Source: a virus | Lineage: Duplodnaviria > Caudoviricetes | IMG/VR virus record: IMGVR_UViG_3300013288_000001 | Location: 7,140 to 71,139 of that record | Reading direction: 5' to 3' (one strand) | Length of the DNA: 64,000 bases | In this document: piece after piece, positions 3,994 through 61,931 of the stretch | Layout of the letters: the number at the start of each line of letters is the position of its first letter | How positions within the stretch are numbered: the stretch's first letter is position 1 | Program-made: the position numbers and the translations under genes | Notes under the pieces: generated by a model | Seen by the model: only the letters and a program-made list of their open reading frames with translations | The model's database searches: none | What the model was told of the DNA's origin: nothing

Positions 3994-4098
3994 CTAGCGG
4001 CGCTGCGACTTGCCCGACTTCTTCCCGGTAAATTTCTTGTTGCGTGGGCGACGGTCATTCTTGCCCGACTGAGTACGCCACTCATTATAACTGGACAT
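3994..4098 (-). CDS. small Arg/Lys-rich peptide (34 aa)
   Basis: Translated by hand: MSSYNEWRTQSGKNDRRPRNKKFTGKKSGKSQRR*; AAAGGGGG RBS inside a CGAAA/TTTCG hairpin. Confidence 0.5.
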   Translation of the reverse strand: MSSYNEWRTQSGKNDRRPRNKKFTGKKSGKSQRR

Positions 4099-4651: not shown

Positions 4652-4679
4652 TTGAGCGATAGAATATTTGTGCTATAGT
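4652..4679 (+). promoter_or_regulatory. lysis cassette promoter
   Basis: TTGAGC-16-TATAGT with extended TGn; shares GAAnATTTGTGCTA with promoters at 54431 and 61831. Confidence 0.6.
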
Positions 4680-4703
4680 CGTTAATTATTGAGGGAGTGC
4701 AAT

Positions 4704-5504
4704 ATGCGAGTTCACTACATCACGACTATTCTACTGATCCTGCTGTTAGCACTGCTGTCAATTTCCCCAGCGGCAGCGGCACAGATCAGTGACGACGTAG
4801 CCTACGGACTTCCTCAGACGTGGGAAAACCTTCTTATCTTCATCGCTGGCTCTATCGCATTAACGGTCTTAGGCGTAGGAGGTAAAGGGTTGTTCTCCAA
4901 GTGGGTCGAGTCCAAGATTGATAGCCATCGCAAGGAAGTTGACACACAAGCTGAGGTCGATCTGACCGACGCTAAACGCGAGCTTGAGCAGGTCAAGACG
5001 CAACTGGAACTCCTCAAAGGTCAGCAGCAACTCAACCAATCGCTCCTCGAACAGAACGCCGAACAAGGAAAGCATCTAGGCAAGGCAGTAGACGCGCTTT
5101 CTACGATTTCAGATACTCTCGGCCAGCTATCCGGGGCGCTCAAGACGCAAGGTGGCACCCTTACCACCATGCAGACCGCTGTGACTTCGCTAGATACCAA
5201 AACCGACACGGTGCATAACCTGGTTGAAGCAGTCGTCAAGGACATTAAGCGACTGCCAGATACTCAGGCACAGCAGCAACTTATCGAAACCATCCTCTCC
5301 GAGATTCGGAACCCAACCGGGAAGCGCAACGAACTCTTTGAGGAAGTCCTGCGGGAACTGAGGATTATCCGTAACCGCCTACCTCCTAGCGGCGATACTG
5401 GCCCGCTCAGTGACCCGCTGGTAGACCCGCCGACTGGCCCGATGCCAGTGCTACCCCGCTCCATTGATGATGTGATTGCATTGGGCGCACCTTCGCTCAA
5501 TTAG
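4704..5504 (+). CDS. membrane protein with signal peptide, TM helix and long coiled coil (lysis cassette)
   Basis: GAGGGA RBS; hydrophobic N-terminus ending AAAAQ; TM LLIFIAGSIALTVLGVGG; heptad-rich C-terminus. Confidence 0.7.
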   Translation: MRVHYITTILLILLLALLSISPAAAAQISDDVAYGLPQTWENLLIFIAGSIALTVLGVGGKGLFSKWVESKIDSHRKEVDTQAEVDLTDAKRELEQVKTQLELLKGQQQLNQSLLEQNAEQGKHLGKAVDALSTISDTLGQLSGALKTQGGTLTTMQTAVTSLDTKTDTVHNLVEAVVKDIKRLPDTQAQQQLIETILSEIRNPTGKRNELFEEVLRELRIIRNRLPPSGDTGPLSDPLVDPPTGPMPVLPRSIDDVIALGAPSLN

Positions 5505-5517
5505 AAAGGAGTCTCCC

Positions 5518-6012
5518 GTGAAACGTTTGTTATTGGCGGCCTTGCTGGTGATCCTGTTTGCTGTGCCGTTCCTGGCGCTGGCGCAGTCACAGGACGCGCC
5601 TGTGGAACCGGTGGCTGTATTCACCCCGCCTACCCCGGAAACGGTGGCTGATGGGCTGATTGCGCTGCTGCTGTCCGTGTTCGCCGGTGCTATCGCCAGC
5701 CCTGTGACCATGCCCATTGTGAGTGTTGTGAAGCGGCTTCCATTCCTGGACGGCTTCAGTGGCGACCAATTAAACCTTGCGGTTGCGATGCTCTTGAGTG
5801 TGCTGACCTGGCTGGCTGGTGTCTTCGGACTGGCTCCGCAGCTGGATACCTTGTTCCAAGTAATCGTGGCATTGTCTCCGGTCTTTGCTGGCCTTTATGT
5901 TAGCTACGCCAGCAATCAAGGTCTTTACCGGTGGGCAAACAGTAAGAACATGCCTATTGTCGGTTTTGCCCGCACACCACAACGCGTCCAGCGGTCTACG
6001 GTCGTCGGTTAG
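5518..6012 (+). CDS. holin-like multi-pass membrane protein with signal peptide
   Basis: AAGGAG RBS, GTG start; signal peptide (ALA-Q) and three hydrophobic segments; immediately upstream of the hydrolase. Confidence 0.6.
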   Translation: MKRLLLAALLVILFAVPFLALAQSQDAPVEPVAVFTPPTPETVADGLIALLLSVFAGAIASPVTMPIVSVVKRLPFLDGFSGDQLNLAVAMLLSVLTWLAGVFGLAPQLDTLFQVIVALSPVFAGLYVSYASNQGLYRWANSKNMPIVGFARTPQRVQRSTVVG

Positions 6013-6027
6013 TCTAACGAGGCATCC

Positions 6028-7623
6028 ATGACTCGAAGCGTCGTCGGGGGCAACATCGAAGTTGCACTGCTCCAGAACAAAGAGCCCGTAAAGCAGCTCT
6101 ACAAGGACATGCAAAGCGCGGCGCATACGTTCGTGGTTCACAACCCTAACGATCTGTCTGTGATCCACGACTGGCGGCGGGAGCTTGCCCCTGACTACGC
6201 GGTAGCGCGGGTCTACCTCAAAGACCGCAACGAAGGCCAGATGCACATGCCGCCGCTGTCCCCTGCGGACGTGGCGGCTAAGAAACGCTGGATTGTCTCG
6301 CCAGAGGACTTCCTCAATGCCTTTGGCGAGTTCGGTCGTAACGGCCTGATCCTGAACGTCCACAACGAACCGGCACCTCCTAACGACGACAATGACCGCT
6401 GGCAGGAAGAGCGTCTGATCGAGTGGACGCTCAAGTACCTCGATCTGATTGCCCCGCTGGCGACCACCCCTAAAAAGACGGCAAGTGTTCTTTTTAACTT
6501 TGGTTTTCACCAGCCCGCGAAAGGGCGCTGGAAGTTTTACCATGAGGCGCTGCGACGGGCGAATGAACTGCCCGACGTGTATATTGGCCTGCACCTCTAC
6601 GTACACCCCACACTGCCTTACGAAGACGGGGACACGCTCAAGGAACTGGATGAGTATTGCCGCGCCAATGGCTTCAACAATATCAAGGTCATCGTCACGG
6701 AATGGGGCTTTGATAAAGGCGGTGGCAGAGGCGATGGCTACAAGTCCCCGCTCTATGGATTCAAGGATAGCCGGGACGCGGTACGGCGGCTGTACACCAG
6801 CTTCCAGACCTACCTGAAGCCCTACGTTGCCAGCGGGCGGGTCGTCGGAGTGTGCTACTTCGGTCATGGTCATGCCGACTTCCCTGGCATGGATTCCTCT
6901 AACGATCCTGACTTCCTCGATCAGATGACCTTCACTGCTAAAAACGGCGGCTTTGCGGCGTTGCTCCCCGTGCCACCGAAGCCTCCTGAAACCAAGCCCG
7001 GAACCGCACCACTGCCCTACCCCTCACCTGTACCCCTTGGAGATTCAATGGGGGTTATCAACAAGGCGGCTCGAACGCTGCGAAACGGCCCGTCTATCTC
7101 TTACCGGGTACTCGAAGAAATCCCAGTCAGCACCGAGGTCAACCTCTACACGCAGCAGGTCGTCACGGATAGTTCTAAACAGGCGTGGGTATGGTGTGAT
7201 TACGTCACGGACAAAGGTCAGCGGGCGGGTTGGGTGTGCATCAGTGGATGGTCATACCGCTACAAGCCTGTAGACAAGCCTAGCGGCACGCCAGTACGTC
7301 GCAGCTTGACCTTTGCAGGCGTTCGGCGGCCTGTACGTCAGGGGCCGGGTGAAAAGTGGGACACCGTTGGCTCACTGGTCAAAGGCACGCCGGTGGATGT
7401 CTGGCTGAAGCCAGTGCAGGGCTGGATGTACGTGGAAAATGGACAGGTCAAGGGCTGGATTGACGTGGATGGGATCAGTTTCAATCTGGTTGCGGACAAC
7501 ACGCCGGATACGATTGTGCTGCCCGCGCCGTCCAAGGGTTGCGTCTACGTGCAGGTGCCAGCCGCGTTGCTGGATACCCTGGCGCAGTGGGTAGGCTCGA
7601 TTGAGCGCTATCCGGCGGGGTAA
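6028..7623 (+). CDS. putative endolysin: clan GH-A glycoside hydrolase plus two SH3b domains
   Basis: HNEP (acid/base) and VTEWG (nucleophile) motifs; Pro-rich linker; two LRxGP...GW SH3_3-like repeats. Confidence 0.75.
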   Translation: MTRSVVGGNIEVALLQNKEPVKQLYKDMQSAAHTFVVHNPNDLSVIHDWRRELAPDYAVARVYLKDRNEGQMHMPPLSPADVAAKKRWIVSPEDFLNAFGEFGRNGLILNVHNEPAPPNDDNDRWQEERLIEWTLKYLDLIAPLATTPKKTASVLFNFGFHQPAKGRWKFYHEALRRANELPDVYIGLHLYVHPTLPYEDGDTLKELDEYCRANGFNNIKVIVTEWGFDKGGGRGDGYKSPLYGFKDSRDAVRRLYTSFQTYLKPYVASGRVVGVCYFGHGHADFPGMDSSNDPDFLDQMTFTAKNGGFAALLPVPPKPPETKPGTAPLPYPSPVPLGDSMGVINKAARTLRNGPSISYRVLEEIPVSTEVNLYTQQVVTDSSKQAWVWCDYVTDKGQRAGWVCISGWSYRYKPVDKPSGTPVRRSLTFAGVRRPVRQGPGEKWDTVGSLVKGTPVDVWLKPVQGWMYVENGQVKGWIDVDGISFNLVADNTPDTIVLPAPSKGCVYVQVPAALLDTLAQWVGSIERYPAG

Positions 7624-12132: not shown

Positions 12133-12339
12133 TTACTCCGACTGACCACGACGCCGAATCTGACCAAGCTGTGCCAGCATCGCAGCGAAGCCCAGTGCAC
12201 TGCCCCGGTTCTGGTTACGCAGATGTGCAGGTACAGTCTTCTTCCCCGCACGGCGTTCCTTGTGGAAGGCCCGCCGCGCTGCGGCCTTACGCTCGACCCG
12301 CGCTTTATGTCGGTTGATTTTGCTGGAACGGGATTTCAT
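12133..12339 (-). CDS. small Arg/Lys-rich protein (68 aa)
   Basis: AAGGTGG RBS; first gene after the promoter and LexA box at 12354-12391. Confidence 0.6.
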   Translation of the reverse strand: MKSRSSKINRHKARVERKAAARRAFHKERRAGKKTVPAHLRNQNRGSALGFAAMLAQLGQIRRRGQSE

Positions 12340-33301: not shown

Positions 33302-34054
33302 ATGATTAACATCAGCTTCGATCAGATGGTTGTAAATCCTGAAAATGTGCTTACTTTGGCACGAATCACTACTATCAAGGCATTGACCAAAGCAGGTCAG
33401 GACTGGCGTATAACGCCGGAGTTTGATGATATGCAAGCTCAGGCAGCATGGAAAATTTATAACGCCATGCAAGTCTATCCTGGCAAACACATCCTTTATT
33501 ACTACGCCGTCGGCTCAAATGCCGCCATGTCTTGGCGGCAGACGTGGCGGCTGGGGGTGAAGGGTGTGCGCGATCCGCAAAAATCATCGGTGGATTTTGC
33601 GGACGTTTTTCACAAGGGAAGCGATTTTGAAGAGATGGACGAAGATCGCTTTTCGGAGTTGGCGTATGTTCAACACTACTTTGACACTGACACGCTATAC
33701 GACACTTTGGTGTCGTGGTTTCTGCAAGATCGGGACAAAAAAGGCGAGCGCGGTCTAACCGCAGCCCGCCGCGATGCCGACATCTGCCTGTGGGCCGCGC
33801 AGGGCCTCACAAATTTGGAGATCAGCGAGGTTACGGGGATTAAGGTCAGCACAGTCAAGGAATACCGAAAAAGAATTCGGGCATTGCTCCAAATGCGTCT
33901 TGAAGGGGAACCCAAGCAGCCAGTAGCAGCACCCGTGACTATTTTGCCTCAGGAAGAGCCTGCCGAAGAAAATCAGATGGAGTTGTTCTTTGGAGCAGCT
34001 TTACAAAGACTTCGCGACGCTAATCTATTCGCCGACGATGAGGAGGATGATTAA
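33302..34054 (+). CDS. transcription regulator with LuxR/GerE-type HTH
   Basis: RRDADICLWAAQGLTNLEISEVTGIKVSTVKEYRKRI. Confidence 0.7.
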   Translation: MINISFDQMVVNPENVLTLARITTIKALTKAGQDWRITPEFDDMQAQAAWKIYNAMQVYPGKHILYYYAVGSNAAMSWRQTWRLGVKGVRDPQKSSVDFADVFHKGSDFEEMDEDRFSELAYVQHYFDTDTLYDTLVSWFLQDRDKKGERGLTAARRDADICLWAAQGLTNLEISEVTGIKVSTVKEYRKRIRALLQMRLEGEPKQPVAAPVTILPQEEPAEENQMELFFGAALQRLRDANLFADDEEDD

Positions 34055-34082: not shown

Positions 34083-34104
34083 AAGTGATACAGTATGGTA
34101 TAAT
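34083..34104 (+). promoter_or_regulatory. AAGTGAT-family promoter, copy 7 (drives the large ncRNA)
   Basis: AAGTGAT ACAGTATG GTATAAT; also forms the inverted repeat AAGTGAT-N13-ATCACTT. Confidence 0.7.
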
Positions 34105-34354
34105 CACTTTTGTACGGCGCGATAGCACACAAGGCTACTGATAGAATGAAGCGGTATCAGGTGCGGGCGGTTCGCACTCGCGTCACTAGCAGGGTCAAGG
34201 GTATAACGCACAACTTGACCCTGTGAACGTCAGAATAGGAGTAGCAGATGTCATGGGCTGCTGCTTCTGGCTCTCTAGAATCCCGTTTCGACATCCGCGT
34301 TACCCCTTCGTGGATGAGCGATAAGCCGGGGCAGGGCTGGCAAACGGGAGTAGG

Positions 34355-34428
34355 GCGTGCAGGGAAGTCTCGGAGACTTCGCACTGGCAAAGCTGGTGAG
34401 ACGGGAGGTTCGATCCCTCCGGCACGCA
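34355..34428 (+). other. tRNA-like cloverleaf embedded in the ncRNA (not a canonical tRNA)
   Basis: Canonical 74-nt geometry and GGAGG-TTCGATC-CCTCC T-arm, but no U8 or U33, AAA at the anticodon position and no encoded CCA. Confidence 0.55.
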
Positions 34429-34665
34429 CTGCCCTTAGGGGTGCGCGGCGGCACACGGTGGTAGTAGGGATGCCAAGAAACGCGGGGTGAACCTGTGCCG
34501 GGGTTTACTCCACATTAAAAGGATGTGCAGACCTTGCGGGTAATTCCGCGTAGCGTGAAAACGCACTGCAACGGACGCAACCGCGTAGATACCTCGAAGG
34601 ACATCCTCAATCATCCCCCTACCAGGGAGCCGCCAGAATTCCCACCGCTGGCTAACCCCAATGAG

Positions 34666-34695
34666 AACGCCCCTTTGACGGGGCGTTTTGATTTT
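34666..34695 (+). terminator. intrinsic terminator
   Basis: AACGCCCC-tttgac-GGGGCGTT followed by TTGATTTT. Confidence 0.8.
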
Positions 34696-40035: not shown

Positions 40036-40299
40036 GTGATGAGTGACCGTCTTAACTTTCATGAATACATGCTGGCGATTGCGGATGAGTTCAAGTTATC
40101 TCACGCGCAAATGATCGTCATTCGTCGCAAACTCACCGCTACTTATCACGGGCAATCTACAGTGTCCCTCGAAGCGCTGGCGCAGGTTATCTGGAACGGC
40201 CTGAGCGACGGTCAGGAAGTGGTACCGCTGCTTAATGCCGATCTGATCGGTTTAGCGCAGCAAGTCGAACAGCAGTGGTCACAGGAGCAAGCGCAATGA
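40036..40299 (+). CDS. hypothetical protein
   Basis: GAGG RBS, 87 aa. Confidence 0.6.
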   Translation: MMSDRLNFHEYMLAIADEFKLSHAQMIVIRRKLTATYHGQSTVSLEALAQVIWNGLSDGQEVVPLLNADLIGLAQQVEQQWSQEQAQ

Positions 40300-49651: not shown

Positions 49652-49980
49652 CAACCGCTTTCACGCAACGCTTCATTGGCGAAACAAGCACTCTGGAATT
49701 TAAGTTCGTGAATTCCAGCGGGGTAGCAGCCAACCCGTCCGGTATCACGCTCAAGATTGGCGTCTGGAATAAGGCGGCAGGGGTGGTCAATCAACTGACT
49801 GACCCGGCTGTGACCCAATCCGCCATGAGCAACCCGGCAACCGGCACATGGCGCTACGACTACACCTGGGAGCAAGCAGGACTGCATATCATCGAAGTAG
49901 AAACGACTGGCACACCGACGACCGTCATTCGCACTGAGGTCATTGTGGTTGCGCCGGACTTGACCTGGAGCACATCATGA
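49648..49980 (+). CDS. small Ig-like/BppU-like virion protein
   Basis: beta-rich; GTWRYDYTWEQAG. Confidence 0.5.
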   Translation: MTTAFTQRFIGETSTLEFKFVNSSGVAANPSGITLKIGVWNKAAGVVNQLTDPAVTQSAMSNPATGTWRYDYTWEQAGLHIIEVETTGTPTTVIRTEVIVVAPDLTWSTS

Positions 49981-52115
49981 CCAAACCTTTAACCCCCGCC
50001 ATGAAGCGGGCGATGGAAGCCTATCAGACGAACGGCGTAACGGCGCTTTCCGGCGTTGATCCCCGGACGCGGCGGGCGCTGGAAGCCCGTGCGCTCATTC
50101 CCCGCGAGTCGGTGGGGGAGATTGTCGGACGCCCGCGGACCAACCGCATGACGGTCAACTGGCGCGATGCAGGTTTCAGCATTACGCCTACCCGCGATCC
50201 GGGGCAGAGTGACTATCAGTTCTGGGACATGATGTGGCGCGGGCAAGCCAGAGGCTACGAGCTGGCGGGGCTGCTGCTGAAGCCGCTGGCCTCCAAGATC
50301 GCCGCCTGGACGATGGGAACGCCGCCGCGCTTTCGCTCCAAGAAGCCCCGTACCCAGTCGTTATTCAATGAATGGTGGGCTAAGAACCTGCCGAACATCA
50401 TCCGGGGCGTAGAACACGCAGTCATCAAGGGCGATGCCTATCTGGTGGTCAATCCGCCCAACGCGAGAGGCGAACTGACCTTAACCCTACTCCCCCCGGA
50501 AGTCGTGACTGCCGTGGTGGATGAAAATGACTACAGCCGGCGCATCGGCTGGCGGATCGTCGAAGTGCATCCTCACCCGACGCGCATTGCCGATAGCATG
50601 ACGGTGGAAGACATCTACACCACGACGGAACGCATTCGGCGCGTCTGGCGGAGTGGGATGCCCGTTAAAGAAGAACGCTTCCCCAACCTGACCGGACTGG
50701 TACCCGTCATCAAGATCAGCAATGATCGGGGTGCAGATGAAGAGTTCGGACGGTCGGGGGCTGAGGCGCTATTGACACTCTTCAAGATGTACCACGATGT
50801 GCTGAAGGCCGGTCTGGAAGGCAACCTGAAGCAGGGGAGGCCAACCCCGGTACTCGAAAAGATGGGTACTCAGAAACAGATTGACGACTGGTGGGAAGCC
50901 TTCGGTTCCAAGCAAACGCGGGAACTCGACGATGGCACGACGGAAACTTACTACGTGCTGGATCTATCCAGTGACGACGCCATAACCTTAGGCGGCGATG
51001 CCACCTTCCGTTACGCGCAACCCATGAGCTTTAGCGCCGATACAATGAACCTGCTGGGACTACTGTTCTACCTGTACATCCAGCATACAGAAATCCCTGA
51101 GTTCATCATGGGCAACGCTATTGCGTCCTCTAAGGCCAGCGCCGAAACGCAGATGCCCGCTTTTGCCAAGTTCATCGAAAAGAAACAGGGTGAATGTCTG
51201 CACTGGATGAACGATCTGGCACAGGTGGTCATCGCCTTTTTCAGCCTGTATGAACGCGGGGTGAATGCCAATGACGACCTGCAAACCACCTTCGTGCCGC
51301 TCACGTCACAGGACGGACGGTTGACACTGGACGCCATTAAGATGGGGCTGGACTTCGGTCTACTCGACGACGAAACCGCGCTCCAGTTCATGCCACTGGA
51401 CATTGAGAACCCGGAACAGGTCATCCTCAAGGCGCGGCAGGAAGCGGAGGAAAAACGACTGGCGGCACGGCAAGCCCGGATGCAAGATGACATCGAAGTC
51501 TCGCCCGTTGTCGAACCGCGCAACCCCAATCCCGCCGAGTCTGCACCAGTCCAGCGGACGCTCTCAGAAGCCAAGCATACCGGCGCGATGTTGGCCTTTA
51601 TGCTGGATGGCACAGCAGCCTCAGCACTCGCCAGCGCGGTTGAAATGGCGGGTATCCCGGCGGCTGATCGCCTCCCTACCGATGAGCTGCACCTGACGCT
51701 GGCCTACTTAGGCGATACGTCGGAGTTGGACTTTGAGGAAAGCGATGTCATGCAGGTGTTAGGGGACTTCGCTGGCACCGAGTTCAACGTGAGAGGCAAA
51801 CTGAGTGGCATCGGACGCTTTACCAATGTGGAAGGGCCAGAGGCGACCGTGGTCTATGCGTCGGTCGATGCACCTGCCTTGCCCGCTTTCCGGCAAGCTC
51901 TGGTCGAAGCGCTAGGCGACAACGGCATTGACCATGCCCGTAACCACGGCTTTACCCCGCACATTTCGCTGATGTACCTGAAGCCGGATGTCCCCACGCC
52001 CAACATCGAACTGCCTGATCTGGAGATGGTCTTTGACCGTATCACATTGATGTGGGGAGATAATCGGACGGATTTCAACTTGAAAGGATCGCCACTGGAG
52101 ATGATCCCGGCGTGA
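49977..52115 (+). CDS. portal protein with C-terminal 2H phosphoesterase domain
   Basis: Position before head genes, portal-like N-terminal ~480 aa; C-terminal HLTL and HISL 2H motifs. Confidence 0.8.
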   Translation: MTKPLTPAMKRAMEAYQTNGVTALSGVDPRTRRALEARALIPRESVGEIVGRPRTNRMTVNWRDAGFSITPTRDPGQSDYQFWDMMWRGQARGYELAGLLLKPLASKIAAWTMGTPPRFRSKKPRTQSLFNEWWAKNLPNIIRGVEHAVIKGDAYLVVNPPNARGELTLTLLPPEVVTAVVDENDYSRRIGWRIVEVHPHPTRIADSMTVEDIYTTTERIRRVWRSGMPVKEERFPNLTGLVPVIKISNDRGADEEFGRSGAEALLTLFKMYHDVLKAGLEGNLKQGRPTPVLEKMGTQKQIDDWWEAFGSKQTRELDDGTTETYYVLDLSSDDAITLGGDATFRYAQPMSFSADTMNLLGLLFYLYIQHTEIPEFIMGNAIASSKASAETQMPAFAKFIEKKQGECLHWMNDLAQVVIAFFSLYERGVNANDDLQTTFVPLTSQDGRLTLDAIKMGLDFGLLDDETALQFMPLDIENPEQVILKARQEAEEKRLAARQARMQDDIEVSPVVEPRNPNPAESAPVQRTLSEAKHTGAMLAFMLDGTAASALASAVEMAGIPAADRLPTDELHLTLAYLGDTSELDFEESDVMQVLGDFAGTEFNVRGKLSGIGRFTNVEGPEATVVYASVDAPALPAFRQALVEALGDNGIDHARNHGFTPHISLMYLKPDVPTPNIELPDLEMVFDRITLMWGDNRTDFNLKGSPLEMIPA

Positions 52116-54388
52116 TTACCTATACCCGCTTCTCCATTGAGGCGATTGAACGGGACTTTGCTGACGCTTTTGAGCCGGGGGTAGACCGGATTACGCGCCT
52201 CATCCAGCAACGCGCCAGCGCCGATGGTTCACTCAACCTGAGCGGGGGTGCAAAAGACCTATTCATCGATGCCATCGGCGATGAAGTCTCCGCACTCTTC
52301 ACCCCACGCGGTAGCCGCAACGCATTCGGGCGCGATGGGGTGACGGCTCAAGCGCCGTTCCCGGTGACACTCAACCGCTGGTATGCCAACGCGGTTTATA
52401 GAGCGGTGAAACCTCATGCCGACTGGATGACCAAGCGCGTGCCACTGGACATTCAGCGGGCGCTCAAAAGCCGCGTGCAGGTGCGACGGGAGAGTTATTC
52501 ACCCATAGGCGAAACGACCAACCCGATTAAGGGATTGTTCGTGCCAAACCCGCTGGCGCAGTATGACCCGATGCACACCTGGGTAGACCCCAATGGCTAT
52601 GTCCTCTCCCAACGTATCTGGCGGGCAGGGGAGGCCACGCGCTCCAAGATTGACCGCTTGTTAGCGGACTTGATTGCGCGGGGTACAGGTTCTCTGGAGA
52701 TGTCCCGTATCCTCGAACAGTTCCTGCTTCCCGGACGCGAGTTACTCCGTACTCGTAGACCCTACGGCACCGATGCCAGCTATGACGCCATGCGACTGGC
52801 ACGGACGGAGATCGCCCATGCAGCGAACCAGGCAGCAGCCATCGCCGCCTACAGCAACCCTTATGTGGAAACCATTGACGTAGCGCGTTCCCGGTGGGGC
52901 GATCCCAATTGCAAGATTTGCCCGCAACATGCGACCATCGGCATTAACGGGGAACGTATCCGGCCAGCGTATCCAAAAGGCAGCTTTCGCATTCCACCTT
53001 TTCATCCACATTGTGTTACACCGGGTCAATTGGTGAACACTATGCGGGGCATAATCCCGATTGAAAATGTCGTGGAAGGTGATTACGTGCTTACGCACAA
53101 GGGGCGTTATCGGAAGGTGCTGGCAGCATGGAGCAAGCAGTATGACGGCTTAGTCCATGCTATCCAGACACCTTCAGGGGTTTTCGAATTAACCAGCGAG
53201 CATCCCGTTTTAACGTCTGAACGGTGGCTTGATGCCCAATTTATCCAACCGGGTCAACAAATCCTCTACGCAGCTATCTACGCTCCGCTCAATAGCATCT
53301 TGAGTGTACCGGAAAGTCATCCAGCCGAACCCCTCCAAAGCAGCATCTCGACGGGCGTCTTTGTCCGGTTTATGCCAGCCGCGCCCGTCACATTCAATCG
53401 CTACTCGGCAAGGAACAAGAGCAAAATCAAGCGAATAACGCCATACCCGATATTCCCGATGGAAGATGAGCTTGTTTCGGGTAAGGGCTTCAGCCATTGC
53501 ACGTTCAATCGACGTTGGCTCCCCATTACGCCGCATTTCAAAAACGCGCTCCAGCATGGCAGCAAGGCCGGGGTTGTATCGCTTTTTGGCAGCAGACATC
53601 TTTTTGCGAACTTCTGGTCTGCTCATGGGATTGTTTTCGCCACTCCGAACCAAAGCGGCACTGATAGATTTATACATCGCACTGGTCATGGCAGATCGGG
53701 TTCCATCATCGTGCGACCAAGTAGCAGCAACGGCTTGACTTCTGGTTTTAAGCTCCAATCCGGCGCGCTTCATCAGACTGCGAAACATACGGAAAGTTAT
53801 CCCCAACTCAGTTCGGATGGCGGGATGATTAAGCCTTTGAGTGTAGTAGAGGTCGGCAAGGACTTCGGAGTAGGGGCGATTGAATTGCCCTTCAATTCTG
53901 GCGATATGCTTGAGTTGGGCGTGGGAAGATCTGCAACTAGGGGCTTTGCAAATTTTGCCAGTACAGGGGGAATCACAAACCAAACAGCGGTTGAGCTTTG
54001 TCACGATAACCTCTCGTCGTTATCTCTCGATGTTGAAGTGGGCGCTGCGTCGAGAAACGCAGTTGTCAGCAGGGTAGCTATCCCTACTCAAGCCCATCTC
54101 TATTATAGCACGGTCGAAGGCGTAACAACCCGGCATTATTCAGGACTGGTCTACAACATGCACGTTGAAGAAGATAATTCCTATACGGTGAACAGTGCCG
54201 CTGTTCATAATTGTATGTGTAGAATTCAGGCCAACGTCGGGGACTTCGAGGAAGTGAACCGCCGACTCCGCGAATGGAGCGACATGGAAAACCCGCCGCC
54301 GCTGGATTTTCCAACGCCTTTAGACTGGTCATCGCTGCTGCTTTTGCTCCTGGGAGCCTATTTGTACAGCCAAATCGAGTTTAATTGA
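52112..54388 (+). CDS. head morphogenesis protein (SPP1 gp7/Mu gpF family) with intein
   Basis: RLARTEIA and C..C motifs; the spliced junction restores FHPH-CMCR. Confidence 0.85.
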   Translation: MITYTRFSIEAIERDFADAFEPGVDRITRLIQQRASADGSLNLSGGAKDLFIDAIGDEVSALFTPRGSRNAFGRDGVTAQAPFPVTLNRWYANAVYRAVKPHADWMTKRVPLDIQRALKSRVQVRRESYSPIGETTNPIKGLFVPNPLAQYDPMHTWVDPNGYVLSQRIWRAGEATRSKIDRLLADLIARGTGSLEMSRILEQFLLPGRELLRTRRPYGTDASYDAMRLARTEIAHAANQAAAIAAYSNPYVETIDVARSRWGDPNCKICPQHATIGINGERIRPAYPKGSFRIPPFHPHCVTPGQLVNTMRGIIPIENVVEGDYVLTHKGRYRKVLAAWSKQYDGLVHAIQTPSGVFELTSEHPVLTSERWLDAQFIQPGQQILYAAIYAPLNSILSVPESHPAEPLQSSISTGVFVRFMPAAPVTFNRYSARNKSKIKRITPYPIFPMEDELVSGKGFSHCTFNRRWLPITPHFKNALQHGSKAGVVSLFGSRHLFANFWSAHGIVFATPNQSGTDRFIHRTGHGRSGSIIVRPSSSNGLTSGFKLQSGALHQTAKHTESYPQLSSDGGMIKPLSVVEVGKDFGVGAIELPFNSGDMLELGVGRSATRGFANFASTGGITNQTAVELCHDNLSSLSLDVEVGAASRNAVVSRVAIPTQAHLYYSTVEGVTTRHYSGLVYNMHVEEDNSYTVNSAAVHNCMCRIQANVGDFEEVNRRLREWSDMENPPPLDFPTPLDWSSLLLLLLGAYLYSQIEFN
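53210..54004 (-). CDS. DUF559/Vsr-like (EDxHD-type) endonuclease encoded antisense inside the intein
   Basis: LDFALVPCRVAIECDGRGWH...DARRD.ALE..GW..FRY; NUMOD3-like GENNPMSRPEVRKKMS; Cys-rich N-terminus; GAGAGG RBS and GTG start. Confidence 0.85.
   Translation of the reverse strand: MTKLNRCLVCDSPCTGKICKAPSCRSSHAQLKHIARIEGQFNRPYSEVLADLYYTQRLNHPAIRTELGITFRMFRSLMKRAGLELKTRSQAVAATWSHDDGTRSAMTSAMYKSISAALVRSGENNPMSRPEVRKKMSAAKKRYNPGLAAMLERVFEMRRNGEPTSIERAMAEALTRNKLIFHREYRVWRYSLDFALVPCRVAIECDGRGWHKPDKDARRDAALEGFGWMTFRYTQDAIERSVDSCVEDLLTRLDKLGIKPPFRR
54102..54110 (-). promoter_or_regulatory. extended -10 promoter for the antisense endonuclease
   Basis: TGCTATAAT on the minus strand, about 100 nt upstream of GTG 54004. 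Confidence 0.65.
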
Positions 54389-54419: not shown

Positions 54420-54531
54420 TTGCATCAATCGAACAGTTGTGCTACTTTTAAGGTTGTGAAACTGTACCGCGAGGCGGTACGGGCTAGGGGTATTCCCTTG
54501 TCCGTACTGCCTCTTTTCGTTAGAGGCGCGT
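54420..54531 (+). promoter_or_regulatory. promoter plus attenuator-like leader, copy 1
   Basis: TTGCAT-17-TACTTT; TACCGC-GAG-GCGGTA hairpin overlapping a long terminator 54471-54517. Confidence 0.7.
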
Positions 54532-55665
54532 ATGGCAGCGACAAAATACACCGGGCGACTCATGGAAATGAGCACTCGCTTCCAGGGGAAGTACCCTGAA
54601 GTGCCGTTGGCACCCGACATCAGCATTGACGAATTGACCGAAGGGGATGCATCGCCCTTCTTCGTTACGCTCCCGGTCGGCAGGGTAGGCGCTCAGTCCA
54701 GGAATGACCGGAAGTATCCCCGCGAGGCGGTGGAAGCGATCCAGAACGCGATTGTCAACGATAAAGTTGGTGGCATCCTCGGACACATGCGGGATGAAGA
54801 CCTGCCGTATCGCTTTGACCTGCCTGTGATGCACTGGGTAGGCGCTACGCTGGAAGGCGATACGCTGTATGGCAAGGCATATATCCCGCCGAGTCAGCAG
54901 GAACTCCGTGAGTACCTCAAGATCCAAATGAAAAAAGGTGCCAAGACCGGTACGTCCATCTTTGGGACAGCCTACATCGAGGATGACGGCACGGTGCGAG
55001 ACTTGGAAATCCAAACGATTGACCTTGCTCACGCCAGCCGGGTTGGTGTCCCAATGACCGCCGCTTTACCAATGATTACCTCCGAGACTGAAAAGTCGGA
55101 GGTTGAAATATCCGATCAGCCTATAGAGGAGTCTGAAACAATGGACGCAGAGAAGAAACTCAATGCGGAAGCTGCTCCGGTGGAACCCGCCGTCATCATT
55201 GAGATGAAGCGGAGCCACGCTGAAGCAGTTCGTGAACTGAATGCCAAGCTGCTGGAAGCCCAGGCCGAAGCTTCTGACCTGAATAAGGTTCGTGAGATGC
55301 TGGGCAAGCCCACCGACGTGATCCTGGCGCTGCAAACCCTTCAGCGCGATAAGGCCAGCCTCGCCAAAGAGAACCTGGAACTGCTCCAGGGCGCAATCAA
55401 GCTGTCGGTTGAGGAAGCTGTGAAGGTTCCCGCCGCCCGCCCAATCGTCGAAGCGGCTGTGAAGGCTGAGAAGCCTACCCGCGCCAGCGAAGTCAAGCAA
55501 GTTCTGGAAGCGGTTCTGGGCCGTACCGAGATGGTCGAACTGCTGAAGCTGGAAGTTCGTGAGGCGATGGGGCCGGAACAGACCCGCCCGCAGACCCCGG
55601 TCAAGCCGGAAGACAAGCGGGACGCCAATCCAGACTTCGTTATTCACATTCCCGGCATGGACTAA
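54532..55665 (+). CDS. prohead protease/scaffold protein
   Basis: NDRKYPREAV, GILGH, TSIFG protease-like N-terminus; coiled-coil scaffold C-terminus. Confidence 0.7.
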   Translation: MAATKYTGRLMEMSTRFQGKYPEVPLAPDISIDELTEGDASPFFVTLPVGRVGAQSRNDRKYPREAVEAIQNAIVNDKVGGILGHMRDEDLPYRFDLPVMHWVGATLEGDTLYGKAYIPPSQQELREYLKIQMKKGAKTGTSIFGTAYIEDDGTVRDLEIQTIDLAHASRVGVPMTAALPMITSETEKSEVEISDQPIEESETMDAEKKLNAEAAPVEPAVIIEMKRSHAEAVRELNAKLLEAQAEASDLNKVREMLGKPTDVILALQTLQRDKASLAKENLELLQGAIKLSVEEAVKVPAARPIVEAAVKAEKPTRASEVKQVLEAVLGRTEMVELLKLEVREAMGPEQTRPQTPVKPEDKRDANPDFVIHIPGMD

Positions 55666-56154: not shown

Positions 56155-57273
56155 ATGAGCACGACAGGCCCCCGTATCATCAGCCGCGAATCGCTGCGCT
56201 TGGAGAACATCCAGCGCCGCGTCCGTGCGGTTGAAGCCATGTCCAGCAAGAATCCAATGAAGTCTCAGTGGTTGGATATGCTGGCTGAAGGCACCATCCC
56301 CAACGCTTCCTTTGGTGAGAACTACGACCTGAAGAAGGCCGTCAAGCTGACCAAAGAAGGCGACCGTACCATTGCCGAGTTCATCGGCGCGGGTTCCATC
56401 TCGCAGGACTTCTTCGTCCGCCAGCGTTACGAAGTAGAAGCAGGCCGCGATCTGGAGCCACTTCTGTTCCCGGCGATCTACAACGTGATTAACGATGCTT
56501 CCTTGCCGGAAACCATCGAAATCAACACCCTGGGGCCGGAAGGCGTGGTCTTCGACAAAATCCTGGAAGGCGGCGAAGTCAAGTTCGCTTCCCTCGGTCA
56601 GTCGGAAAAGACCGTGCGCCTGAACCAGTACGCGGCAGGTATTGAATACTCGGAACGTCTGTTCCGCTTCAATAGCCTGTTCCGCTTCCCGTTCATCGAA
56701 CGGCAGTTCGGTGTAGCGGCGAATGCGCTCCAGAACTACATCCACATGCAGCCGATCCTAGACTACAGCTATGCCGCGTCGAATCAGACGGCAGCCAGCG
56801 CCGTCGGCAGCACCCTGGAAGAGAAGTACCACAACACGATTGACGCGGCGATCACCCACAGCCGCGCCGATACGACCTACCCGCGTCGTGGCCCGTATGT
56901 CCTGCTGGTGTCCACCTCGAACCTGAGCATGGCCCGCAAAGCCGTGACTCGCGTTCCGCAGCAGACCTTCGAGCGCCAGTCGCCTGAGGTCTTTGACAAC
57001 GTGCAGGCGGTTGTTGCCTACGACGGCTGGACGGGTACCCGTGGCAAGAAAGCCACCACCTACGCCGGTGTCACAAACAACAAAGCCTATCTCATTTCGC
57101 TGGCCTACCGCGAAATGGACTTCCAGAGCTATTACCAGCAGGCGCTTCGCCAGCAGCGTGGCGACGGTGATCTGAGCCGCTTCATCGTGGAACAGGTCAT
57201 CTATGACATGTGGTTTGGTGCCTATGCCAACCCCCGTGCGGCCGTGGAAGAGATTTCTTGGCCTACGAGCTGA
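56155..57273 (+). CDS. major capsid protein (HK97 fold)
   Basis: Position and size; GGEVKFASL, YAAGIEYS and LLVSTS patterns. Confidence 0.8.
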   Translation: MSTTGPRIISRESLRLENIQRRVRAVEAMSSKNPMKSQWLDMLAEGTIPNASFGENYDLKKAVKLTKEGDRTIAEFIGAGSISQDFFVRQRYEVEAGRDLEPLLFPAIYNVINDASLPETIEINTLGPEGVVFDKILEGGEVKFASLGQSEKTVRLNQYAAGIEYSERLFRFNSLFRFPFIERQFGVAANALQNYIHMQPILDYSYAASNQTAASAVGSTLEEKYHNTIDAAITHSRADTTYPRRGPYVLLVSTSNLSMARKAVTRVPQQTFERQSPEVFDNVQAVVAYDGWTGTRGKKATTYAGVTNNKAYLISLAYREMDFQSYYQQALRQQRGDGDLSRFIVEQVIYDMWFGAYANPRAAVEEISWPTS

Positions 57274-59063: not shown

Positions 59064-59416
59064 TGGAAGTCTCGTTCCACTGGGAAGGCCAGCAAGGGCT
59101 GATTACCAACCTTGGTCTGTACGGGGAACAGGTGAAACGTATCCCGCACACGGTGTTGGAATACTACCAGCCGGTGCTGGAAACCTACATGAAAGAGAAC
59201 GCGGTGTGGACAGATCGAACCGGGAACGCCCGCCAGAGTCTCTACACCCAACTGGAAGATCTAGCGCAGGACGTGGCGATTTTGTATCTGGCGCATGGCA
59301 TGGAATACGGTCTCTGGCTGGAAGTCCGTTGGGCGGGCAAGTTTGCCATCATCTGGCCGACGATTGCGGCGCACCTGGATGAGATCGCTATCCGGATTCA
59401 AAGGCTGCTGTCCTAA
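59063..59416 (+). CDS. HK97 gp10-like tail component
   Basis: WTDRTGNARQSL...YGLWLE...FAIIWPT. Confidence 0.7.
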   Translation: MEVSFHWEGQQGLITNLGLYGEQVKRIPHTVLEYYQPVLETYMKENAVWTDRTGNARQSLYTQLEDLAQDVAILYLAHGMEYGLWLEVRWAGKFAIIWPTIAAHLDEIAIRIQRLLS

Positions 59417-59865
59417 TGGCGTCTTTTCGTGACACGCTCCAGACACAACTGACCGGCGATGCCATCCTAATGGCACTCTTGACCGGCGGCGTGCTTGACC
59501 CGGCAGACCTGCCACAAGACGGCGGTGGGGCAGGAAGTGTGCCGCGTAATACGGACGGTGTGACGATCAAGCCTTTTGCGATTTTGCGGGGCGGGCCGGA
59601 TGGAAGCTATCAGGGTGAAGATCGGATCTTAAGCGCCGGGGCGGAATTTTGGGAAGTGTACCTGTATCAGGATGTGGGCTACGGCACGATTGACCAGGCG
59701 GTAGGGCGTATCAAAACCTTACTCCATGACACCTATATCACTGCCGATGATCGCGCCATAGCCCATGTCCTGTATACCTTCACCTCTGCTGATTTAGTGG
59801 CAGATGAACTGGGCGGTTGCCCAATGAAGCTATGTCGGTATCAAGTCATTCACATTCGGAAGTGA
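59416..59865 (+). CDS. tail terminator
   Basis: Position before the major tail protein. Confidence 0.55.
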   Translation: MASFRDTLQTQLTGDAILMALLTGGVLDPADLPQDGGGAGSVPRNTDGVTIKPFAILRGGPDGSYQGEDRILSAGAEFWEVYLYQDVGYGTIDQAVGRIKTLLHDTYITADDRAIAHVLYTFTSADLVADELGGCPMKLCRYQVIHIRK

Positions 59866-61205: not shown

Positions 61206-61415
61206 ATGTCCCGTCCCAAAGCCCCTCGCGTGAAACTCATCCGCATCAATCACGGTCTGCTCGGCTACCCCGATACGCGGCGCATTGAGAACACCATGCG
61301 AAAGTGGATGGGCAAGGGTTACACCCTCAAAGCGCAGCAGGACGAACCGCGCCGGGGGTGTTGGTCATGGGGCTACACCTTACTCACATTTGTGGAAGAG
61401 ATGAAACAGACATGA
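61206..61415 (+). CDS. hypothetical protein
   Basis: AAGGAG RBS. Confidence 0.55.
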   Translation: MSRPKAPRVKLIRINHGLLGYPDTRRIENTMRKWMGKGYTLKAQQDEPRRGCWSWGYTLLTFVEEMKQT

Positions 61416-61759
61416 GAAGCGCAAAAGTAATACGGTTAGGTGAATGCAATTGTTCGTCTACTGGTCATCATACGGTTGTGGGCAAGGTGGAAACGGATAG
61501 CGGCGGGATTGTCGGCTTTCACTACCTGATAGATGATGATGCAATCATCGGGGCGCGGGGGTGGGATGTTAAACCCTATGCCCGCTATATCATGAATGCC
61601 ATCCGGGAAGGCATAGCGCAAGCCATTGAGGATGGTTCACTAGAAGTTTTTGAGTATGACCGGGATGGCAATAAGCGCTACACCGATCTGCGCTATCACC
61701 CTGACGACTGGAAAACGGTAACGGTCAAACGCTTGCGTCGGTGGATTGAAGATAGTTAA
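61412..61759 (+). CDS. hypothetical protein
   Basis: ATGA coupling. Confidence 0.55.
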   Translation: MRSAKVIRLGECNCSSTGHHTVVGKVETDSGGIVGFHYLIDDDAIIGARGWDVKPYARYIMNAIREGIAQAIEDGSLEVFEYDRDGNKRYTDLRYHPDDWKTVTVKRLRRWIEDS

Positions 61760-61828
61760 GCTATACATCCCACAAACCAAAGTCTAACCACAGGCTTGCC
61801 AAAGCCATAAGTTTCCATTGCTCTAAAG

Positions 61829-61931
61829 TAGAAAATTTGTGCTAAACTAAGGCTGTCGAATAACCGCGAGGCGGTGTATCAGGCGTATTGTCGCTTTGGT
61901 ACACCGCCTCTTTGTTTTGAAACAGTAGGCG
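61829..61931 (+). promoter_or_regulatory. promoter plus attenuator-like leader, copy 2
   Basis: TGCTAAACT; ACCGC-GAG-GCGGT hairpin overlapping terminator 61868-61918. Confidence 0.7.

Follow-up and report, generated by a model that had tools for sequence, protein, structure and literature searches.

What is the role of two leaders of common layout, each with a promoter-like sequence and then a long terminator-like hairpin, in front of the scaffold-like and tape-measure genes of this phage? The window, i.e. the whole 64,000-nt stretch analyzed here, comprises bases 7140-71139 of a complete metagenomic phage genome of 71,139 bp with direct terminal repeats. Because related loci are found in Anaerolineae/Anaerolineales MAGs, the host is probably a member of the Anaerolineae (Chloroflexota). 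The late genes lie on the + strand of the window from about 37990 onward, and the features of the two leaders and their neighborhood are collected in Table 1. Our preferred reading, to which we give a probability of roughly 0.45, is that the leaders are local cis-acting terminator/antiterminator gates at the heads of virion blocks, and that they need something to stabilize a small hairpin (hairpin A) that overlaps the terminator hairpin (hairpin B).

Table 1. Positions in the window of the two leaders, their parts, and the surrounding late genes
Feature	Position	Strand	Remarks
Terminase gene		+	late region, upstream of leader 1
Portal gene	49977-52115	+	
Minor head protein gene with intein	52112-54388	+	directly precedes leader 1
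Copy 1, putative promoter	54420-54448	+	-35 TTGCAT 54420-25; 17-nt spacer; extended -10 TGTGC-TACTTT 54438-48
Copy 1, spacer box GAAC-N4-GTGC	54431-42	+	overlaps promoter spacer
Copy 1, discriminator/start-site region AAGGTTGT... and short 5' tail of leader RNA	54450-54463	+	predicted transcription start
Copy 1, hairpin A (putative antiterminator)	54464-54480	+	GTACCGC/GAG/GCGGTAC
Copy 1, core CCGCGAGGCGG	54467-54477	+	
Copy 1, terminator hairpin B	54471-54513	+	54471-54482 pairs with 54502-54513; base of 5' arm common with hairpin A
Copy 1, U-run TTTTCGTT	54514-54521	+	TTTT at 54514-54517; read from sequence
Copy 1, RBS and start codon	54522-54534	+	GAGG 54523-26, ATG 54532; start of scaffold-like gene
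Scaffold-like gene	54532-55665	+	protein matches phrog_3219 (function unannotated); downstream of leader 1
Major capsid gene	56155-57273	+	PF25209; after scaffold-like gene
Connector and tail genes		+	between major capsid gene and leader 2
Copy 2, putative promoter	61818-61848	+	TTGCTC -35-like hexamer; 19-nt spacer; extended -10 TGTGC-TAAACT 61838-48
Copy 2, hairpin A	61863-61875	+	ACCGC/GAG/GCGGT
Copy 2, core	61864-61874	+	
Copy 2, terminator hairpin B	61868-61910	+	
Copy 2, U-run TTTGTTTT	61911-61918	+	read from sequence
Copy 2, weak RBS and start codon	61927-61934	+	AGG, ATG 61932; start of tape-measure gene
Tape-measure gene	61932 to window end (runs off)	+	PF10145, E 1.4e-47; downstream of leader 2

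Re-reading of the sequence shows that the leader coordinates given by the first-pass annotation are all correct in both copies, and that both leaders have the order of elements that it described: an extended -10 promoter, ACCGCGAGGCGGT, a long hairpin with a U-run, a ribosome-binding site (RBS), and ATG. The two leaders have in common TGTGCTA (TGTGCTAnnnT), AAGG, the identical 13-mer ACCGCGAGGCGGT, GCCTCTTT, the long hairpin, and the U-run, and both end 14-18 nt upstream of the ATG. The described overlap of hairpin A with the 5' arm of terminator B is present in both copies, the 3' strand of A being the base of the 5' arm of B. Other parts of that description do not hold. AAGGYTGT, which it listed among the shared leader elements, directly follows the -10 element in many related promoters (TAnAnT-TAAGG) and is thus promoter/start-site sequence rather than an RNA motif. 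The window has three exact matches to the 11-mer CCGCGAGGCGG, each of them on the + strand; the CCGC-GAG-GCGG at 54720-54730 in the scaffold-like gene, formerly counted as a further hairpin, is a coding coincidence, as it encodes a conserved peptide (YPREAV) that the relatives L125 and L126 write with other synonymous bases. A third pairing (pairing C), between the 3' arm of B and the RBS region, can form in both window copies (-11.0 and -9.1 kcal/mol; in copy 1, GCCTCT at 54509-14 with AGAGGC at 54522-27) and is strong in a few others, but it is weak or absent in many relatives and was rejected as a conserved feature of the family.

The scaffold-like protein shows only weak coiled-coil matches against PDB profiles, and blastn of the leader region against public phage records gives no nucleotide match. 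The N-terminus of the tape-measure protein (MAPGRDPVTGRF) is kept in relatives. Two small ORFs, 61206-61415 (69 aa) and 61412-61759 (115 aa), lie between a tail-chaperone-like gene and leader 2.

Covariation, which the first-pass annotation had named as a way to check the leader fold, was tested on a 33-row alignment (A7), and the comparison supports terminator hairpin B strongly and hairpin A (CCGC-GNG-GCGG) moderately. For hairpin B, 93% of the cells pair and 69 cells carry double-sided changes, which 0 of 500 shuffles reach and slid registers fall far below; this alignment was fitted to B, contains many related rows, and was in large part assembled with the core as bait. In the relatives L002 and L003, G-U and compensatory changes maintain the stem of copy 2. 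As in intrinsic terminators, a GC-rich stem is directly followed by a U-run, and the stem is kept by compensatory changes. In the same alignment, with the same reservations, hairpin A has a covariation score of 0.183, compared to 0.089 in shuffles (0 of 500 reach it) and at most 0.12 in slid registers. Three of its core pairs are invariant, the fourth changes once (CG to UA in L161), and the fifth is UA in 20 copies, AU in 6, GC in 1, UG in 1, and unpaired in 4.

The results also show that three positions change together, the one preceding CCGC, the one following GCGG, and the partner of the latter in B (U/A/U in 20 copies, A/U/A in 7, G/C/G in 1, and U/G/U in 1), and the four exceptions to this three-way pattern break A, never B. 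Locus L161 alters three strands together, from CCGC/GCGG/CCGC to UCGC/GCGA/UCGC. Strand X (CCGC) lies outside B, yet it is invariant in 32 of the 33 copies, while the upper stem of B has diverged freely. Hairpins A and B are mutually exclusive, as X and the 3' arm of B are alternative partners of strand X' (GCGG plus 1-3 nt), and the three-way covariation is in agreement with this.

Energy calculations give hairpin B -35.6 kcal/mol in copy 1 and about -32 kcal/mol (-32.0 to -32.7) in copy 2, with z-scores against shuffles of -5.7 and -5.4, respectively, and 0 of 200 shuffles are as good. When the RNA is folded over the stretch between predicted start and U-run, the B state has -35.6 (copy 1) and -32.0 kcal/mol (copy 2), compared to -23.3 and -17.4 kcal/mol when A is enforced. 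Termination should thus be the thermodynamic default in this model, by 12-15 kcal/mol, and read-through would therefore need hairpin A to be stabilized or kinetically trapped. In the nascent RNA, before the 3' arm of B is made, hairpin A belongs to the minimum-energy fold (-9.4 to -14.5 kcal/mol in copy 1), and by itself it is weak, at about -6.5 kcal/mol. Enforcing A prevents the 7 lowest pairs of B from forming, and the residual upper hairpin ends about 16 nt before the U-run. Since the per-leader shuffle tests for hairpin A are weak (p 0.008 to 0.5), we base the case for A on covariation.

Pattern scans of IMG/VR, with the core fixed in the pattern, show that many other phage contigs contain the core together with a hairpin and U-run, frequently in multiple copies, and 33 distinct copies were collected from related phage contigs. 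The T-run follows the stem in all 33 family members, and the distance from the hairpin to the start codon is 17-24 nt across the family. A covariance model (R1) built from 22 copies (alignment A5) finds two full-length copies in this phage and 2, 3, 4, 3, and 4 copies in five related records; in these six phage records, every R1 copy is in the virion module and has the orientation of the coding strand, with none outside this module. The copies are located 60-65 nt upstream of the start codons of four recurring genes, namely the scaffold-like gene, a 149-aa tail gene (homologue of window 59416-59865), the tape-measure gene, and the Dit gene (phrog_33). These slots are filled or empty in different phages, and the tape-measure gene of G001 has no element. 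There are also promoter-less copies, which begin about 20 nt past the stop codon of the upstream gene, e.g., before the tape-measure gene in L012, L026, L067, and L004. Four Anaerolineae MAGs contain no strong copies in their chromosomes outside a prophage-like contig. At the gathering score, Rfam, named earlier as a further check, has 0 matches in the window, and the best sub-threshold match of the leader (E 0.18, to an unrelated plastid 3' UTR) is at chance level. The element family, with more than 30 members, is an RNA family uncatalogued in Rfam, and we found no description of such an element in a literature search.

Two features of the relatives stand beside these results. In some of them, a minus-strand gene for a secreted or membrane protein lies between the tape-measure and Dit genes (L004:5794-6357 (-) and G002:C1:54947-55762 (-)), where it interrupts the operon, and a promoter-bearing copy is found just downstream, before Dit. 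The copies L004:1344-1417 and L004:6465-6540 are identical over 49 nt, from the promoter through the 5' leader as far as the core, but differ entirely in their upper stems, which suggests homogenization of the 5' half or selection against long repeats.

We also retrieved loci independently of the RNA, via the scaffold-like protein alone (alignment A3), and then read the upstream sequence. This retrieval gives 33 distinct terminator-bearing leaders. The CCGC-GNG-GCGG core is present in 19 of them, including the loop variants GGG and GCG and one UCGC/GCGA variant, whereas the remaining leaders are of the types CAAC-(4 to 8 nt)-GTTG (4/33), GCGTT-loop-AACGC (4/33), GGCC/GGGC versions (GGCC..GGCC; 2/33), and plain terminators (4/33). 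In 29 of the 33 scaffold-retrieved leaders, a mini-hairpin is the minimum-energy fold of the shortened RNA, and its 3' strand enters the 5' arm of the terminator. The CAAC leaders have the same promoter type at the same position and no sequence in common with the CCGC core; because the layout is the same in leaders of unrelated sequence, the conserved feature is the architecture. The phages with CAAC leaders have one copy each, before the scaffold-like gene.

The promoter is always upstream of the terminator and never after it, and this order is kept in about 25 leaders. Such an order makes sense only if read-through is controlled, which argues for controlled read-through. The promoter of copy 1 matches the consensus TTGCaT..aa..GAACatTTGTGCTAnAnT built from 29 related leaders, from which we infer that the leader promoters have a host-type -35 element with an extended -10. 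GAANNNTTGTGCTA occurs three times in the window, compared to 0.02 expected, and TAAGG follows the -10 element in many relatives. The spacer of the TGTGCTA-type late promoters contains a conserved GAAC-N4-GTnC, which is found at 61831-61842 and 4662-4673 besides copy 1 in the window, and also in relatives. It is one base off the LexA-type box GAAC-N4-GTTC and overlaps the extended -10. Perfect GAAC-N4-GTTC boxes are nine-fold enriched in the window (9, compared to 1.1 expected). Because the spacer box is one base from this enriched box, the gates may sit behind a repressible promoter, which we offer as a lead only, and LexA or a LexA-like protein may act as a repressor of the late promoters.

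Two pairs of GAAC-N4-GTTC boxes have the same 45-bp spacing; the pair 39969-39980/40014-40025 lies at the end of terL and in the following intergenic stretch, and the pair 56653-56664/56698-56709 lies within the major capsid gene. The same promoter type also occurs at 4662-4688 before the lysis cassette (4689-7623) with no terminator gate; thus, not all late promoters are gated. A third TGTGCTA-type promoter, without the CCGC element, lies 1.9 kb before the window start (G000:C1:5180-5275). Its leader folds into an 8-bp long-range stem (UUUCUAUA/UAUAGAAA) that ends at the RBS of the next gene, with a total of -22 kcal/mol, and this predicted stem may exert translational control.

Based on these results, the leaders could work as follows. 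RNA polymerase would start at the host-type extended -10 promoter or, where relatives have a promoter-less copy, arrive by read-through from the upstream gene, and a short leader RNA would be made. This RNA would first form the small hairpin A (CCGC-GNG-GCGG plus 1-3 flanking pairs) and would then refold into the far stronger hairpin B, in which the 3' strand of A becomes the base of the 5' arm, with the U-run at the end, 17-24 nt before the start codon. Hairpin B is expected to be an efficient intrinsic terminator, so that the default product would be an RNA of about 65-70 nt, with the downstream genes off or low. If A were held closed, the bottom 7 pairs of B would be blocked, and the residual hairpin would be too far from the U-run to terminate, resulting in read-through. 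The holder of A would most likely be a sequence-specific RNA-binding factor, made or recruited in lytic growth and acting locally at every gate. What the comparison shows is a conserved fold in a recurring position, with A and B in competition and termination as the thermodynamic default; that transcription starts and terminates as described, that this is regulated, and that a binder exists are inferred from it.

We searched for such a trans-acting factor among the proteins of the element-bearing phages. The first-pass annotation had put forward the ORFs 3994-4098, 12133-12339, and 33302-34054 as candidate switch proteins, but none of them has a homologue in the other element-bearing phages G001, G002, and G005. 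The last of these ORFs encodes a 250-aa protein with a GerE/LuxR or sigma-70 region-4-like HTH that matches phrog_3282 ('sigma factor'), which is unrelated to phrog_3219. The four element-bearing phages G000 (this phage), G001, G002, and G005 have nothing in common apart from virion genes, a lysin, and one small family without annotation. This family of 87-134 aa (40036-40299 in the window) is the sole non-virion, non-lysis protein common to the four, and it is always in the head module. It is acidic in this phage and absent from G010, and we regard it as a candidate factor only.

Among the small ORFs before leader 2, 61206-61415 encodes a 69-aa protein that has 65% identity to the product of a correspondingly located ORF in G001, as well as similarity to the N-terminal cytoplasmic domain of a G010 membrane protein of 437 aa, whose C-terminus has a DRDNDG..C motif that we read as Excalibur-like. 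The 69-aa protein was rejected as a general factor: it is found only in this phage (G000), in G001, and as this N-terminus in G010, and has no family match.

Known antiterminator families were not detected in five phage records: the Q families PF06530 and PF03589, CAT_RBD (PF03123), ANTAR (PF03861), and the NusG-like family are all absent, with the positive controls detected. A third Q family (PF06323) also gives no match in these records, but its positive control gave none either. No N-like arginine-rich protein was identified among the proteins common to the element-bearing phages. As for an antisense partner, the window contains no complementary copy of the core or arm, including in the large ncRNA at 34083-34695. 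The earlier reading, in which a protein bound to hairpin A licenses late gene expression, is supported in part. The competing layout of A and B before late genes is real, conserved, and covarying; it also recurs with unrelated sequence at the same position, and default termination fits a switch. The ORFs proposed to encode the protein are not conserved, and no known antiterminator family is encoded.

The main rival to a regulated gate is a factor-independent attenuator, in which B is a constitutive partial terminator and A slows the folding of B, resulting in a fixed read-through that tunes the ratios of virion proteins and insulates the modules. The lack of a factor in the searches of element-bearing phages fits this explanation, as do the gain and loss of copies at single slots between related phages and the promoter-less copies between cistrons, such as those in L012, L026, and L067. 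The invariance of the core could likewise follow from the triple pairing constraint alone, without a sequence-specific binder. However, a promoter upstream of a strongly favored terminator before the most abundant virion proteins would be wasteful unless relieved, and the promoter-then-terminator order is maintained in about 25 leaders. We consider a factor-independent attenuator unlikely, at perhaps one chance in a few, and favor the regulated gate because the promoter lies directly upstream of a terminator favored by 12-15 kcal/mol, before the scaffold and capsid genes.

We next compare the regulated gate with known systems. Its logic appears closest to that of BglG/SacY-type RAT antitermination, and its layout closest to that of lambda PR'-tR'; membership in either system fails because the defining protein and RNA features are missing. 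As in BglG/SacY/LicT (RAT) and ANTAR systems, the 3' strand of the antiterminator hairpin is also part of the terminator 5' arm, the predicted default is termination, and local stabilization would give read-through. The leaders differ from RAT elements in having no RAT similarity, a 5-bp stem with a GNG triloop, and no encoded CAT_RBD protein, and from ANTAR targets, which are dual tandem hexaloops, in being a single triloop hairpin with no ANTAR protein. In addition, they are located in phage virion modules, with 2-4 gates per genome, rather than in sugar or nitrogen operons. The trp/his leader-peptide attenuators also have mutually exclusive antiterminator and terminator hairpins in the leader; the present leaders, in contrast, have no leader ORF, with only about 10-14 nt and no start codon before hairpin A, and no third (1:2) hairpin.

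The lambdoid systems raise a second alternative, processive antitermination of the type seen with lambda N/nut, Q, or put, in which loading would take place at A, as at boxB, or at the promoter, as with Q, and a terminator-resistant polymerase would carry the modification downstream. Like PR'-tR'-Q with its 6S RNA, the leaders combine a constitutive-looking promoter and a strong terminator within about 70 nt before late genes, with a short RNA as the predicted default product. The small hairpin near the RNA 5' end resembles boxB as a likely recognition element for an antitermination factor, and relatives have a conserved A/U-rich stretch (AATTCAAAATTT) upstream of it. A processive system, however, does not need what is observed here, namely that every terminator has and overlaps its own hairpin, and that the hairpin is kept in promoter-less copies. 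There are several gates per genome (2-4), some of them promoter-less, unlike in lambdoid phages with Q. Neither Q (PF06530, PF03589) nor NusG-like families are encoded, and there is no boxA-like consensus. No Q-binding or sigma-dependent pause element was recognized in the leader sequence. Unlike in lambda N/nut, the leader hairpin is fused to the terminator and repeated at each, and its loop is a GNG triloop rather than a GNRA-like pentaloop. We consider processive antitermination improbable.

A third explanation is that the element acts in RNA stability, processing, or translation, with the hairpin protecting the downstream 5' end or the upstream 3' end, and the U-run serving as a translational enhancer by the RBS. 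It would account for the fixed distance of 17-24 nt between hairpin and start codon, and in several copies the 3' arm of B can pair with the RBS. This RBS pairing is not conserved, however; every copy has the terminator signature of a GC-rich stem directly followed by a U-run; and stability requires neither the conservation of strand X nor the competition between A and B, which together make this explanation very unlikely. Least probable of all is a DNA-level site, either a small palindromic operator or roadblock (CCGC-N3-GCGG and CAACGCGCGTTG) or a mobile promoter/stem-loop unit like T4 PeSL, since the palindrome overlaps the 5' arm of the terminator in every sequence class (which a DNA site does not require), A includes a U-G pair, the half-sites are only 4-5 bp, and all copies precede start codons on the coding strand, even though the core is palindromic, the fifth-pair covariation also keeps DNA symmetry, individual slots may have or lack a cassette, and copies in one genome can have identical 5' halves.

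To our knowledge, little is known of late-gene timing in phages beyond the lambdoid Q/N paradigm and a few activators, and nothing for phages of Chloroflexota. A wider picture can also be drawn, which we put forward tentatively and consider doubtful as a whole: a late-gene control system new to description in Chloroflexota-associated siphophages, in which each virion module (head assembly, tail tube, tape measure, and baseplate) would have its own gate, one sequence-specific CCGC-GNG-GCGG binder, from a phage or host family not yet linked to antitermination, would open all gates together, and sister lineages would use a different hairpin/binder pair (CAAC..GTTG). The layout, a promoter locked by an overlapping terminator/antiterminator pair and repeated before virion modules, forms a compact, modellable RNA family by which the borders of late modules are marked in uncultured phages. 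A binder, should there be one, would be a new antiterminator and would provide a simple orthogonal RNA-protein switch; if there is none, the family would show that virion protein ratios are set via terminators tuned by a competing hairpin. Either way, the family could be proposed for Rfam and could aid the annotation of metagenomic phages.
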